A stretch of DNA of 64,000 nt. Source: Clostridia bacterium (GTDB taxonomy: Bacteria; Bacillota; Clostridia; UBA1381; UMGS1253). The notes under the pieces are model-generated. The model was given only the letters and a program-made list of their open reading frames with translations, searched no databases and was not told the origin of the DNA. The translations under genes and the position numbers were made by a program. The DNA lies in the NCBI GenBank assembly GCA_045652745.1, contig JAZRUW010000027.1:353-64352 (forward strand), read 5' to 3'. Position 1 is the stretch's first letter; the number at the start of each line of letters is the position of its first letter. Below are positions 35,865 to 45,641 of this stretch, in pieces.

Positions 35865-35951
35865 GGAGAGGTGTCCGAGTGGTTTAAGGAGCTGGTCTTG
35901 AAAACCAGTGATACGCAAGTACCAAGAGTTCGAATCTCTTCCTCTCCGCCA
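35865..35951 (+). tRNA. tRNA-Ser (anticodon UGA)
   Basis: The sequence is GGAGAGGTGTCCGAGTGGTTTAAGGAGCTGGTCTTGAAAACCAGTGATACGCAAGTACCAAGAGTTCGAATCTCTTCCTCTCCGCCA. The anticodon stem is CTGGT/ACCAG with loop CTTGAAA. It has a long variable arm and an encoded CCA. Confidence 0.9.
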
Positions 35952-35978: not shown

Positions 35979-36070
35979 GGAGAAGTACTCAAGTAGGCCG
36001 AAGAGGCGCCCCTGCTAAGGGTGTAGGTCGGGAAACCGGCGCGAGGGTTCGAATCCCTCCTTCTCCGCCA
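35979..36070 (+). tRNA. tRNA-Ser (anticodon GCU); its 3' end is the probable prophage attachment site
   Basis: The sequence is GGAGAAGTACTCAAGTAGGCCGAAGAGGCGCCCCTGCTAAGGGTGTAGGTCGGGAAACCGGCGCGAGGGTTCGAATCCCTCCTTCTCCGCCA. The anticodon loop is CTGCTAA. It has a long variable arm and an encoded CCA. Confidence 0.9.
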
Positions 36071-36197: not shown

Positions 36198-37244
36198 TTA
36201 TGCGCTTATTTTGTTTTCGGCGATAAAGGTCAGCCATTTTTCTTTTGAGCTGCCCTGCCGCAGTTCGGAAAGGTGTGTGTAGATTTCAAGTGTGGTTTCG
36301 ACATCGGCGTGACCTAACCATCTTTGTGCGGTTTTTACATCCACCCCGGCGTCATAGAGCATCGTAGCATATGCATGGCGCAGCTGATGCGGTGTTGCCT
36401 CGATGCCAAGCTCTGCTTTGTATTTATCCCACATACGAGTGAATTGCGAATCTCGATATAACTCGCCATATTGATTTGCGAAAATGTATTTGCCTCTCAT
36501 TCGAGGCTTTAACAAGTCAAATATAAAATCCGGTAGCGGGATTTCGCGGTTGCCGGCTTCCGTTTTCGGCGAATATTTGATCTGTGGCACTTGGCCTATC
36601 CATTCCACTGTCTTTGATATGCGCACCGACTTGTCCTTTTTGTTGAAATCGGAAGGCTCAAGCGCAAGCGCCTCACCTTTTCGACAGCCGGAGTACAGAT
36701 AGAACAGCGCAAGCACAGCGGCATCCGTATCCTTTTTTGTTTTGATTTTTTCAATATCTATATCTTTTGGTGGTTCTCTTTTTTTCTGCGGCAGGTCCTT
36801 TGGGAGTTTAGCATCTTTGCATGGGTTGCTTTTCAGCATTCTGTGCTCCACAGCGTAATCAAATATCAGACTACATACGAGCTTGCGTGATTGTACGGTC
36901 TTTTTCGCGTAGCCTTGTTTTTTGAGTGCTTTTAAAAATGCGCTGATGTCAGCAGTCTCGATTTCCTTGATGTGCATATCCCCAAAAGCCTTTACTACTT
37001 GTGCCTTCGCCGGGCGGTATTGCTTCAAGGTGTTGTTCTGCAGGGATGGCCAGTGCTCTTTTTCCCAATTGTCGGCTACAATTTTAAACAACTCGCCGCG
37101 TTCCAATTTCTCTTTGTATTCTATCATTTGCCGGGCGATGTCACGCTCTGCAGCCTTCTCGGTTTTGGCACGGCTGTAAAAGTGTACCGGCTCACCGTTT
37201 ATCACGATGGTTTTCGGCCATCTGCCGTCTGGTCTTTGTTTCAT
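36198..37244 (-). CDS. int: Tyrosine integrase
   Basis: The C-terminal catalytic region is ..GCRKGEALAL..HQLRHAYATMLYDAGVDVKTAQRWLGHADVETTLEIYTH, which gives the R..HxxR..H..Y pattern. It has an N-terminal SAM-like domain and lies next to a tRNA. Confidence 0.9.
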   Translation of the reverse strand: MKQRPDGRWPKTIVINGEPVHFYSRAKTEKAAERDIARQMIEYKEKLERGELFKIVADNWEKEHWPSLQNNTLKQYRPAKAQVVKAFGDMHIKEIETADISAFLKALKKQGYAKKTVQSRKLVCSLIFDYAVEHRMLKSNPCKDAKLPKDLPQKKREPPKDIDIEKIKTKKDTDAAVLALFYLYSGCRKGEALALEPSDFNKKDKSVRISKTVEWIGQVPQIKYSPKTEAGNREIPLPDFIFDLLKPRMRGKYIFANQYGELYRDSQFTRMWDKYKAELGIEATPHQLRHAYATMLYDAGVDVKTAQRWLGHADVETTLEIYTHLSELRQGSSKEKWLTFIAENKISA

Positions 37245-43010: not shown

Positions 43011-43823
43011 ATGCAGACGCTTAGTGGCTTTGTTAAGATACACAGAAAACTGTTGCAGTGGGGATGGTATCAAGATCATGCAGTTAAAGAATTGTGGCTT
43101 CATTTGATTTTGACAGCCGCATTCAAGCAAGGTACATACAAAGGCAAAACTATATACCCCGGGCAAGCAATTATCGGGCGACAATCGCTTGCGAAAGAAT
43201 TGGATTTTTCAGAACAAGAGATACGCACGGCGCTAAATAAGTTAAAATCAACCAACGAAATAACCATCGAAACAACCAACAAGTTTTCTGTTGTAACTCT
43301 TACAAACTGGGAAGAGTATCAAGCGACCGAAAAAGATGCAACCAACACGGTAACCACCACTCCAACCAACCATCAACCAACCATCAACCAGCCAGCAACC
43401 AACAATCAACCACATCTTAAGAATGTAAAAGAATATAAAGAATGTAAAGAAGGTAAAGAAAAAGAAAAGGCGGCATCCGCCGCTTGCGCTGATTACCTCC
43501 TCGGCATTGAAAATCTTTCTCTTCGGGAAGCGTTGGAAGGGTTTTTGGAAATGAGGGAACTGATTAAAGCACCAATGACCGAAAGAGCGCTGATGCTTCT
43601 TGTACACAAATTAGAGAAACTTGCTCCGGGCAATATTCATGCTCAAGTGGAAATGCTCAAAGAAGCAACGCTCAACAACTGGAAAAGTGTATTCCCCCCA
43701 AAGAGCGAAGAAAAGAATAAACCGTCTGTGTTTAGCGGTGGTAAATATGATTACGATGAAATCAAACAGAAAGCCAGAGAAAAAATACGACAAAAAATAG
43801 GTAAAGAGTCGGTGGAGGTATAA
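43011..43823 (+). CDS. Phage replisome organizer / DnaD-like replication initiator
   Basis: The N-terminus is GFVKIHRKLLQWGWYQDHAVKELWLHLILTAAFK...GQAIIGRQSLAKELDFSEQEIRTALNKL. A low-complexity linker is encoded by the iterons. The C-terminal domain is DnaD-like (..LEGFLEMRELIKAPMTERALMLLVHKLEKL). Confidence 0.7.
   Translation: MQTLSGFVKIHRKLLQWGWYQDHAVKELWLHLILTAAFKQGTYKGKTIYPGQAIIGRQSLAKELDFSEQEIRTALNKLKSTNEITIETTNKFSVVTLTNWEEYQATEKDATNTVTTTPTNHQPTINQPATNNQPHLKNVKEYKECKEGKEKEKAASAACADYLLGIENLSLREALEGFLEMRELIKAPMTERALMLLVHKLEKLAPGNIHAQVEMLKEATLNNWKSVFPPKSEEKNKPSVFSGGKYDYDEIKQKAREKIRQKIGKESVEV
43364..43470. repeat. Iteron block (about 4.8 x 11 bp AACCAACCATC) plus an A/T-rich repeat tract inside the replication gene
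   Basis: The 11-mers are aaccaaccatc | aaccaaccatc | aaccagccagc | aaccaacaatc | aaccacatc (43364-43416). They are followed by aagaatgtaaa...aagaatgtaaa and aggtaaagaaaaagaaaagg. Confidence 0.75.
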
Positions 43824-43826
43824 GAT

Positions 43827-45641
43827 ATGGCATTATTTGTTGATAATTTTGCCGGCGGTGGTGGCGCATCGACCGGCATAGAAATGGCAATCGGGCGTAG
43901 CGTGGATATTGCAATTAACCACGACCCCGAAGCTATACGAATGCACAAAGCGAATCATCCAGACACGAAACATTATTGTGAAAACGTGTGGGATGTAGAC
44001 CCGGTGGAAGCGTGCAACGGTGAGCCGGTAGCACTTGCATGGTTTAGCCCGGACTGCACGCACTTTTCGAGAGCGAAAGGCGGTAAGCCGGTGGATAAGA
44101 ACATCCGCGGCCTGGCATGGGTTACAATTCGATGGGCTGCTATGGTACGACCGAGCGTGATTATGCTTGAAAATGTGCCGGAGATTCGCACATGGGGACC
44201 GCTCGGCGCTGACAATAAGCCGGATAAGGAAAGAGCCGGCGAAACCTTTGAAGGTTTTATATTGGCATTGACAACGGGATTATCAAAAGAGCATCCGGCA
44301 TTTGCGGAAATGTGTGAGGCGTTGCAGATTGAGCCGGATTCTGATATGGCAACTAAGATTTCGAATGGTCTCGGTTACGATGTAGACTATCGCATATTAA
44401 AATCCTGCGACTACGGTGCACCGACATCGAGACAGCGATTTTACATGATTGCACGCTCAGATGGTAGACCGATTGAATGGCCGAAGCCGACACATGCACC
44501 AAAGAACAGCGAAGCGGTAAAGCGCGGTGAATGTTTGCCATATCGTACAGCTGCAGAGTGTATCGACTGGAGTATTGAGCCGCAGAGTATATTTGAGCGT
44601 AAAAAACCACTCGCGGAAAATACCTTGCGCAGAATTGCTCGGGGTATCGAAAAATTTGTAATCAATAATCCGGAGCCGTTTATTGTAACGGTAAATCATT
44701 CCGGGGACGGCTTCAGAGGTCAGAGCGTGGACAAGCCGCTCGATACAGTGACGGCAAAGAACGGATACGGTGTAGTTACTCCTATAATTACGACATTCAA
44801 TCAAAACAGCAAAGGACAAAAACTTGATGAACCTATTGCCACGGTAATGGCGGGTGCACCGAGATTTGGCCTTGTCGTGCCGACAATCACAGCGATGGGG
44901 CATCAAGGGACGAAAAGTTGCAGAACAAGACCTGCGGATGAACCACTTTCGACGATAGTAAGCAAAAACGAGCACATCTTGGTAGCGCCGACACTGATAC
45001 AGTATCACGGTGAAACGGCAAAAGATGAGGTGCGTGGTCAAAAGGTGGATGAACCGATAATGACTGTAGACACTGCACCGAGATATGCATTGTCGGTTGC
45101 GCACATTATGAAGAACTACGGTGGTAATTATCAAGGCGCGGGCAGTGATGTTGAAAAGCCGTTACCGACAGTAACCGGCAAAGACCACAACAGCCTTGTG
45201 ACGGCGCATGTCGTTACGCTTCGCAACAATATGGACGGACAGAAAATGGACGAGCCTTTGACAACAATTTCCTGTAGCGGAGCGCATCATGCCGAGGTCC
45301 AGGCGTTTTTAGTCAAATATTTTTCAAATGGAATAGCAAAAAGTACAGACGAGCCTCTTGATACAATCACCACAAAGGACCGTTTTGCGTTGGTGACGAT
45401 TTGCGGTGAGCAGTATGTCATTGTCGATATCAAAATGCGTATGCTACAGCCACATGAACTGTTCAAAGCGCAGGGGTTCCCGGATAATTACATAATTGAC
45501 GTTGACGTAGACGGCAACAAAATCACCAAGACAGAGCAAACTGCAAAATGCGGTAACGCGGTAACGCCGCAGGTGCCTGCAGCATTGGTAAGAGCGAACC
45601 TGCCGGAATATTGTACAGTGGAATTGAGGAAAGGAGCGTGA
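43827..45641 (+). CDS. DNA (cytosine-5) methyltransferase with an expanded repeat region
   Basis: The motifs are DNFAGGGGAS (I), FSPDCTHFS (IV), ENVPE (VI), TSRQRFY (VIII), and QGFPDNY and CGNAV (IX/X). The protein is 604 aa, with seven tandem modules between motifs VIII and IX. Confidence 0.85.
   Translation: MALFVDNFAGGGGASTGIEMAIGRSVDIAINHDPEAIRMHKANHPDTKHYCENVWDVDPVEACNGEPVALAWFSPDCTHFSRAKGGKPVDKNIRGLAWVTIRWAAMVRPSVIMLENVPEIRTWGPLGADNKPDKERAGETFEGFILALTTGLSKEHPAFAEMCEALQIEPDSDMATKISNGLGYDVDYRILKSCDYGAPTSRQRFYMIARSDGRPIEWPKPTHAPKNSEAVKRGECLPYRTAAECIDWSIEPQSIFERKKPLAENTLRRIARGIEKFVINNPEPFIVTVNHSGDGFRGQSVDKPLDTVTAKNGYGVVTPIITTFNQNSKGQKLDEPIATVMAGAPRFGLVVPTITAMGHQGTKSCRTRPADEPLSTIVSKNEHILVAPTLIQYHGETAKDEVRGQKVDEPIMTVDTAPRYALSVAHIMKNYGGNYQGAGSDVEKPLPTVTGKDHNSLVTAHVVTLRNNMDGQKMDEPLTTISCSGAHHAEVQAFLVKYFSNGIAKSTDEPLDTITTKDRFALVTICGEQYVIVDIKMRMLQPHELFKAQGFPDNYIIDVDVDGNKITKTEQTAKCGNAVTPQVPAALVRANLPEYCTVELRKGA

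Follow-up and report, generated by a model that had tools for sequence, protein, structure and literature searches.

The window analysed here is a stretch of 64,000 nucleotides (nt) from contig JAZRUW010000027.1 of a Clostridia bacterium. It carries a prophage gene for a C5 cytosine DNA methyltransferase of 604 amino acids (aa), whose variable region consists mainly of seven tandem units of 32-37 aa each between catalytic motifs VIII and IX. Each unit is, judged by its sequence, the recognition core of a target-recognition domain (TRD), an element found once in ordinary enzymes and seven times in this one. The units evolve as exchangeable cassettes. We propose, with a probability of about one in two, that the array is a set of minimal target-recognition modules that would give multispecific, self-protective methylation. 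The gene and the parts of its variable region are as follows.

43827-45641, plus strand: coding sequence of the orphan prophage C5 cytosine DNA methyltransferase, ATG start, 604 aa and stop
44472-44711, plus strand: conserved, non-repeated start of the variable region (AECIDWS and KPLAENTLRRIARGIEKF), aa 216-295
44712-44807, plus strand: unit 1, FRGQSVDKPLDTVTAKNGYGVVTPIITTFNQN, aa 296-327, type L, always the first unit
44808-44918, plus strand: unit 2, SKGQKLDEPIATVMAGAPRFGLVVPTITAMGHQGTKS, aa 328-364, a cassette differing from close relatives
44919-45029, plus strand: unit 3, CRTRPADEPLSTIVSKNEHILVAPTLIQYHGETAKDE, aa 365-401, type O
45030-45134, plus strand: unit 4, VRGQKVDEPIMTVDTAPRYALSVAHIMKNYGGNYQ, aa 402-436
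45135-45230, plus strand: unit 5, GAGSDVEKPLPTVTGKDHNSLVTAHVVTLRNN, aa 437-468
45231-45329, plus strand: unit 6, MDGQKMDEPLTTISCSGAHHAEVQAFLVKYFSN, aa 469-501, family-wide type B, almost always penultimate
45330-45422, plus strand: unit 7, GIAKSTDEPLDTITTKDRFALVTICGEQYVI, aa 502-532, family-wide type A, the last unit

The repeat is defined by strings of the form D/E-E/K-P-x-x-T-V/I, which start at aa 302, 334, 371, 408, 443, 475 and 508 with a spacing of 32-37 aa. The pattern [DE][EK]PxxT[VI] is observed seven times, while 20,000 shuffles of the protein yield 0.007 on average and never more than one. The initial annotation of this window had described seven such strings between motif VIII and motifs IX/X, and all of them are found at the places it quoted. 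The interval it gave, 44712-45401 (aa 296-525), covers units 1 to 6 completely; unit 7 is covered for the most part and extends to 45422. Each unit scores 18-39 bits with a hidden Markov model (HMM) built from the other six, compared with at most 6.8 bits for shuffled units. With a unit HMM the seven score 39-57 bits, and none of them is degenerate or frameshifted. The alignment of the seven units bears out the shared skeleton of Gly-Gln, Pro and Thr-Val/Ile. Gly-Gln precedes the acidic pair; Pro, Thr-Val/Ile and usually a further Thr follow, and then a loop of five to seven residues. After the loop comes a Leu-Val strand and then a second hydrophobic strand. The non-repeated start of the variable region is strongly conserved, with columns I246-V278 invariant or nearly so. 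It is predicted with a per-residue confidence score (pLDDT) of 80-95 up to about aa 280, including a helix at 264-279.

At the DNA level the units do not form an array that Tandem Repeats Finder detects. Repeated DNA within them is limited to stretches of about 20 nt with 71-78% identity around GATGAACC, which encodes D-E-P. The repeat thus exists at the protein level only, which indicates that the duplications are old. The stretches, which code for G-Q-x-x-D-E-P (GGACAAAAACTTGATGAACCTAT and relatives), occur in several units between 44814 and 45268. Speculatively, they could serve as microhomology for the gain, loss and replacement of units.

The comparison with M.HaeIII, for which residues 222-292 of PDB entry 1dct were used, links the unit to the recognition core. 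The unit HMM aligns M.HaeIII residues 232-243 to unit columns 7-18 with 1.5 bits, against 0.6 bits for the 99th percentile of shuffles, and the register agrees with that predicted by the Pro and Thr-Val anchors. Residues 226-249 of M.HaeIII align with unit 1 (FRGQSVDKPLDTVTAKNGYGVVTP) without a gap from the acidic pair to the closing Pro, sharing Pro, Thr-Val, Ala and the closing Pro. In this register Arg227 corresponds to unit column 2 and Arg243 to column 18. Arg225, Ser224 and Arg227 of M.HaeIII contact the bases of GGCC, and the exchange Arg243Gln moves its preference from GGCC towards GCGC (Rockah-Shmuel and Tawfik, PMC3526282). A monospecific control gives a consistent picture. M_MAGs_10 (CATCGATG), a characterised monospecific enzyme whose sequence is given in PMC11954522, has exactly one unit-HMM match, DKPSPTITT, just before motif IX. 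This is the place occupied in our enzyme by unit 7, which corresponds to the single Thr-Leu segment of ordinary C5 methyltransferases. In four Bacillus multispecific enzymes the best unit-HMM match is their shared last TRD, DEPAFTVNTIDRHGV, with at most 4.6 bits. Other Bacillus TRDs, GLSPTITTNKGEGLKIAV and AVSHTLSASDW...NAVV, have the same skeleton by eye, and BLASTP aligns unit 4 to the last TRD of M.SPRI, GEPAFTVNTIDRHGVAV. The only feature conserved among the TRDs of C5 methyltransferases is a Thr-Leu dipeptide, and in M.HhaI the residue Thr250 contacts the DNA backbone where the base is flipped out. From this background, the register on M.HaeIII and the single match in the monospecific enzyme, we infer that the unit is the TRD recognition core. 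The placement of the units in the variable region by the initial annotation is thereby upheld, each of them matching this core (Thr-Leu/Val with the flanking specificity positions of M.HaeIII).

The conservation of single columns follows the same division into scaffold and variable loops. Pro at column 9 is conserved in 99% and Thr at column 12 in 95-97% of all units, the middle ones included. Column 11 and the loop columns 16-19, which follow Thr-Val-Thr, are among the most variable overall (2.8-3.4 bits), while within a unit type columns 11, 14, 16-19 and 20 are the most conserved. Within types, the entropy of column 18 drops to 0.26 bits (9% kept) and column 17 keeps 21%, compared with 63-72% kept by the other variable columns (5, 7, 8, 23, 25 and 27). 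This contrast is informative because the clustering weighted all columns equally, although it is not fully independent of the clustering. Column 2, the equivalent of Arg227, is variable and often absent. Type-defining loops at the base-reading positions of M.HaeIII would be the pattern expected of specificity determinants. No unit type resembling the GGCC TRD (EPAFT) was found.

Evidence for exchange of units comes from close homologues. Mean identity to 119 of them is 32% for unit 2, compared with 69-90% for the other units and 67-90% for all other regions. The nearest homologue, P0002 (86% identity), delimits a replaced segment.

44787-44966, plus strand: cassette replaced relative to P0002, aa 321-380, comprising the tail of unit 1, all of unit 2 and the head of unit 3

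Over this segment DNA identity to P0002 is 45-50%, whereas elsewhere it is mostly 80-93% (73-97% by window). In the protein alignment approximately aa 318-383 are visibly divergent, and the rest is identical or conservatively exchanged. Within the close clade (57-86% identity) units 1, 4, 5, 6 and 7 are kept and one to four units lie between units 1 and 4, giving six to nine units in total; whole units have been gained and lost at this position. Furthermore, among 987 units from 151 diverse proteins, the best match of each unit is in another protein (mean identity 70%, compared with 44% within its own protein), so that the units show no concerted evolution. At 50% identity the units of the 151 proteins fall into 237 clusters, and the middle units alone account for well over a hundred types. 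Between enzymes with backbone identities of only 53-64%, certain middle types reach 84-92% identity, and they occur at different ordinal positions. The ends of the array behave differently. The first unit belongs to few types across the family, type A is the last unit in 88 of its 90 copies, and type B, present in 78 of the 151 proteins, is penultimate in 69 of 81 copies. H487, V491, L495 and Y498 of unit 6 are nearly invariant. Gain, loss and replacement of units are what we claim, and not reshuffling of their order. Frequent inversion of the order of middle units seemed present at first (29 of 115 pairs) and was rejected, since more complete units and stricter identity thresholds left 12 of 103, 1 of 19 and 0 of 4 pairs.

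The array belongs to a large family. A word-indexed protein search returned at least 8,000 matching proteins, and an exhaustive search of representatives at 50% identity gave 2,802 at E<1e-30. In the phage collection 355 records were matched, 251 of them with at least 80% coverage; they include phages of Gordonia, Mycobacterium, Pseudomonas, Arthrobacter, Vibrio, Klebsiella, Escherichia, Roseburia and Bacillus, among others. Genomic loci of the family are found in Listeria, Paenibacillus, Acinetobacter, Sphingomonas, Bacteroidota and Planctomycetota, among others. The 150 listed representatives are 472-1113 aa long. The length of 604 aa, which the initial annotation had set against roughly 350-450 aa for ordinary enzymes, is therefore large for C5 methyltransferases generally and yet ordinary within the family. 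An iterated unit HMM finds 1 to 12 units, mostly five to eight, in these 150 diverse representatives. In named phages it finds six units in Roseburia phage Jekyll, six in Citrobacter phage phiNP, six above threshold in Klebsiella phage 5 LV-2017 and three in Bacillus phage phi105. Seven units are present in 106 of 120 close relatives. With seven as the norm of the close clade and a family range of 1-12, the number is not an expansion. The alternative that the annotation had offered, a structural repeat of this phage methyltransferase family expanded in the present enzyme, is thus retained in its first part, the repeat being typical of the family, and given up in its second.

Within the phage family phrog_116 ('DNA methyltransferase') our enzyme is a plain member. 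The examples are the cytosine DNA methylase of Roseburia phage Jekyll, Met of Citrobacter phage phiNP and the putative methylase of Klebsiella phage 5 LV-2017. They are 47-53% identical over the full length and agree with it in architecture and genome position; only the set of middle units differs. Three of the six Jekyll units are of the same types as units 3, 4 and 5 here, type O being Jekyll unit 2. The phage records annotate these proteins no further than 'methylase'.

Multi-TRD methyltransferases of phages are a concept dating from the 1980s. The Bacillus phage enzymes M.SPRI, M.Phi3TI, M.Rho11sI, M.H2I and M.SPBetaI are, like our enzyme, phage orphans with several recognition segments, putative ones in our case, in tandem between motifs VIII and IX. 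An alignment by eye shows x-P-x-x-T-(L/I/V)-T in the segments of both groups and, after it, a hydrophobic (I/V)(A/S)V strand, and in both the last module is constant while the upstream modules vary. Temperate Bacillus phages array several TRDs per polypeptide (PMC12707154; PMC8936443), and the multispecific enzymes provide self-protection against several restriction systems (PMC12707154). There are also differences. Identity to M.SPRI is only 23% over 269 aa (E 8e-5), which places our enzyme in a separate lineage; the kinship to the SPR, phi3T and rho11s enzymes suggested by the initial annotation does not go beyond the superfamily. Motif IV is SPDC here and SPCQ in the Bacillus enzymes. Seven modules are present here and up to 12 in the family, compared with about three to four visible in four Bacillus sequences. 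The family is distributed over many bacterial phyla and their phages, whereas the SPR-type lineage is restricted to one Bacillus phage group. Specificity was mapped experimentally for the Bacillus enzymes and is predicted from sequence for ours. Our enzyme could well be a functional analogue of the SPR, phi3T and rho11s enzymes from a separate and far larger lineage, a proposal for which we see an even chance.

Two other systems are instructive. M.HaeIII (GGCC; PDB entries 1dct and 3ubt) has the same fold as our enzyme (Foldseek E 8e-9 and 4e-8) and contains the segment once, within a TRD of about 100 aa, compared with seven in a row here; the match is weak (1.5 bits). In type I HsdS proteins, whose TRDs are described in PMC12707154, TRDs are swapped as cassettes between otherwise conserved proteins, leaving sharp drops of identity. 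HsdS differs in its unrelated fold and enzyme class, and its two TRDs act jointly on a bipartite site and do not form an array of alternatives.

Based on these observations the following mechanism is proposed. The protein is predicted to be an active orphan C5 methyltransferase of a temperate phage, probably made from the early or replication module upon prophage induction. Instead of one TRD, its variable region would consist of seven minimal recognition modules in a row, each about 33 aa long. A module would retain the scaffold that ordinary enzymes possess once (Gly-Gln, Pro, Thr-Val/Ile and the hydrophobic Leu-Val strand), and the two variable positions or loops with which M.HaeIII reads bases would be specific to each module. 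The modules would be flexibly linked, and each of them could dock opposite the catalytic domain on the DNA. In the docked module, Thr-Val may support the flipped cytosine while the loops select a short sequence. One polypeptide would thereby methylate several unrelated short sites and shield the replicating phage genome from several type II restriction systems of the host. The constant type L at the start and types B and A at the end probably also form the fixed frame of a small domain, and the units between them would be the exchangeable part. Of this, the analysis shows the enzyme class, the intact catalytic motifs, the repeat and its homology to a TRD recognition core, the cassette-wise evolution and the setting as a prophage orphan; that modules dock alternately, that each has a specificity of its own and that the enzyme counters restriction is inferred.

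A number of observations weigh against this proposal. Types A and B are nearly constant, for which a structural role is at least as good an explanation as recognition, and from enzyme to enzyme the units keep largely the same order. Of the 150 listed representatives, those with the fewest units mostly retain about three, so a single unit may not suffice; two members score only one or two units by the HMM, with weak sub-threshold matches nearby. Mapped TRDs of the Bacillus enzymes are 38-54 aa long and the present units are shorter, with 32-37 aa. The units resemble M.HaeIII and the Bacillus TRDs weakly in sequence (1.5-4.6 bits), and a profile of 73 units gave only chance matches against the PDB sequences. 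Our literature search, with REBASE outside its scope, found no publication or methylation data on this family, its repeats or its specificity. AlphaFold2 was run with a diverse alignment of 88 sequences (run A1) and with a register-consistent alignment of 115 sequences (run A2). For the repeats at aa 288-520 it gave a pLDDT of 29-57 in A1 and 23-44 in A2, with no confident fold. The repeats are not predicted as a rigid domain, and the models are too poor to speak for flexible, independent docking, for which neither run provides structural support. Concerning the rigid repeat domain considered in the initial annotation, none is seen, although no usable model was obtained either (pLDDT 23-57 over both runs).

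The units may instead form one composite DNA-binding domain, an extended beta-rich small domain or clamp with a single, possibly short or relaxed, specificity. Unit number would then tune the footprint, affinity or processivity and not the count of motifs. The minimal set of about three units (first, B and A) in most of the fewest-unit members examined would suit such a domain, as would the fixed positions and near invariance of types A and B (H487, V491 and Y498), the mostly colinear order and the regular strand-loop-strand pattern of each unit. A fixed geometry would tolerate poorly, however, that whole units are gained, lost and replaced between proteins of 57-86% identity. Loops that are conserved within a type and radically different between types argue for specificity determinants and not for packing residues. 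In addition, AlphaFold2 is usually good on solenoid-like repeats, and it found no consistent packing in two runs. We regard a composite domain as rather unlikely, though it is the main rival of the proposal. Improbable in our view is that most units are silent 'pseudo-TRDs', which would act as spacers or supply new specificities by recombination, while only the terminal unit or units recognise DNA. Inactive pseudo-domains in Bacillus phage methyltransferases were reportedly described by Lange et al. in 1991. The last unit alone is at the canonical position before motif IX, and the conserved DNA of about 20 nt around GATGAACC could support recombination from unit to unit. Silent units would hardly be expected to look as the middle units do: their Pro (99%) and Thr (95-97%) are as conserved as those of terminal units, their loops are strongly conserved within type, some of their types are more conserved than the catalytic backbone, and no unit of our enzyme is degenerate or frameshifted.

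A quite different chemistry or role, in which another group is transferred or the repeats bind a host protein or mimic DNA, is very improbable. It is motivated by motif I, FAGGGGASTG, which within the stretch 43827-43990 (aa 5-54) weakly matches PDB entry 8yf3 (E 3e-4; Foldseek rank 13), a DNA cytosine C5-carboxymethyltransferase with the motif FAGGGGSSTG, and by Asp-Cys instead of Pro-Cys in motif IV. The match to 8yf3 probably reflects shared superfamily features only. All motifs of an S-adenosylmethionine (AdoMet)-dependent C5 methyltransferase are intact, and no CmoA-like gene is present among the ten neighbours scanned. Mimicry of DNA by the repeats was considered and ruled out, because with a net charge of -2 and a pI of 6.5 the repeat region is close to neutral, unlike acidic mimics.

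Returning to the array of recognition modules, there is nothing unusual about the gene as such, which belongs to a very common family already annotated in databases as DNA cytosine methyltransferase. Three aspects appear to be undescribed in the literature searched: a variable region built from as many as twelve TRD-core modules, each of about 33 aa, the swapping of these modules as cassettes, and the coincidence of the type-defining positions with the specificity residues of M.HaeIII. More tentatively, and with some doubt on our part, the family may derive its specificity from as many as twelve autonomous, interchangeable readers of short DNA sequences, each about 33 aa long, in which case our enzyme would methylate about five to seven motifs. 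If this is true, the units would rank as the smallest modular readers of DNA sequence so far known among methyltransferases. Sequences would then yield a dictionary from unit type to motif, and swapping cassettes would allow enzymes to be reprogrammed. Independent modules would mean that one common gene family accounts for the evasion of several restriction systems, by a single protein, in temperate phages of many phyla, and that the composition of the unit array predicts 5-methylcytosine (5mC) patterns and host range of phages from sequence. They would also offer a compact natural toolkit of units of about 33 aa for the design of multi-site cytosine methylases. If the units form one domain, the finding reduces to an unusual small domain built from repeats. 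PacBio sequencing detects 5mC poorly (PMC8936443), so 5mC methylomes are under-sampled and a widespread architecture could have escaped notice.

The assignment to the C5 cytosine methyltransferases, made in the initial annotation, stands: the enzyme is a C5 cytosine methyltransferase with intact catalytic motifs, motif IV having Asp-Cys where Pro-Cys is usual. It matches Pfam PF00145 with 90.6 bits (gathering score 22, E 1.6e-25) and the phrog_116 profile over aa 4-597 (E 5.1e-104). The dcm superfamily model TIGR00675 gives 76.3 and does not reach its cut-off of 100.65, because the repeats interrupt the profile. A protein identical to ours is present in the public collection (P0001). The translation signal and catalytic motifs are listed below.

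43814-43818, plus strand: Shine-Dalgarno sequence GGAGG, 8 nt 5' of the methyltransferase ATG
43848-43865, plus strand: motif I, FAGGGG, the AdoMet-binding loop, aa 8-13, with G10, G12 and G13 invariant in 88 homologues
44046-44069, plus strand: motif IV, SPDCTHFS, with the catalytic Cys77, aa 74-81; S74, P75, C77 and S81 invariant, D76 nearly so
44169-44177, plus strand: motif VI, ENV, aa 115-117, with E115, N116 and V117 invariant in 88 homologues
44421-44444, plus strand: motif VIII, PTSRQRFY, aa 199-206, with T200, R202 and R204 invariant
45438-45491, plus strand: motif IX region, RMLQPHELFKAQGFPDNY, aa 538-555, with R538, M539, L540, E544 and L545 invariant and pLDDT >90
45549-45563, plus strand: motif X, CGNAV, aa 575-579, with G576, N577 and V579 invariant

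The motifs are in canonical order and invariant in the alignments of 88 and 115 homologues. Motif IX, RMLQPHE...QGFP, occupies aa 538-552, and QGFPDNY aa 549-555. Motif IV was aligned to GGPPCQGFS of PDB entry 3g7u, and motif VIII to M.HhaI and DNMT1. Most C5 methyltransferases have Pro-Cys in motif IV, whereas this family has S-P-D-C throughout, with Asp before the invariant Cys77 and Pro one position further upstream. In motif VIII the enzyme has Thr (P-T-S-R-Q-R), invariant in its homologues, where most C5 methyltransferases have Gln. The catalytic domain is modelled by AlphaFold2 with pLDDT >90, being confident in both runs, and with this model Foldseek matches the solved structures of 3g7u, DNMT1/MET1, M.HaeIII and M.HhaI (E 4e-11 to 4e-8). 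The small domain of the two-domain fold is not modelled.

Inteins with a Hint domain, mostly together with a LAGLIDADG homing endonuclease, are found in the longest homologues P0151, P0187, P0223 and P0258 (about 1,050-1,110 aa) and in P0192. Four of the five inteins split motif IV exactly between Asp76 and Cys77 (...WFSPD/CFPAGT...VVHN/CKHFS, with slashes at the junctions), corresponding to nt 44052-44057 here, and the catalytic cysteine is their +1 extein residue. Insertion exactly at Cys77 marks it as a conserved core residue. The intein of P0192 is located after motif VI. One further reading frame overlaps the repeat region; being opposite a strongly conserved coding frame, it is most likely spurious.

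44457-45134, minus strand: antisense open reading frame of 225 aa with a TTG start

The gene is located in a prophage integrated directly downstream of two tRNA genes.

35865-35951 and 35979-36070: tRNA-Ser genes
36198-37244, minus strand: tyrosine integrase (Pfam Phage_integrase, E 1.8e-24), adjoining the tRNA-Ser gene at 35979-36070

The integrase is followed by an S24/helix-turn-helix repressor, an AAA_24 protein, an ERCC4 nuclease, a replication-organiser-like protein and then the methyltransferase. Beyond it are a YopX protein, the large terminase (at 48339) and a likely portal protein, and a long open reading frame occupies 59622-62102. The prophage extends past the end of the window (64000), and the right-hand attachment site is therefore outside it. 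None of the ten neighbours scanned matches a restriction enzyme, ERCC4 being a structure-specific nuclease family. The gene is thus an orphan in the early region of the prophage. P0002 is located in the same kind of module on another contig, and the precomputed Pfam hits of its neighbours include no restriction-enzyme family.

A megablast search with a 20-kb segment of the prophage against 50,697 phage records returned only matches of 68-71 nt with 90-98% identity, in 'phage' records of Enterococcus, Listeria and Staphylococcus. The matched stretch is the conserved tRNA-Ser at 36000-36070 of the window, so the prophage has no close DNA relative in that collection. The nearest genomic relatives of the locus are metagenome-assembled genomes of uncultured gut Clostridia/Eubacteriales. 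In named phages the homologues are found in the early region beside Lar or adenine methyltransferases. This setting, an orphan gene in an early module with such neighbours, fits an anti-restriction role.

Details of two of these loci may be added. Roseburia phage Jekyll (L086) encodes a Lar restriction-alleviation protein at 346-597, near the methyltransferase homologue. Citrobacter phage phiNP (L087) has an N6-adenine methyltransferase at 1618-2499, whose end overlaps the start of the methyltransferase homologue, and a Dam methylase downstream, from 6540 onward.

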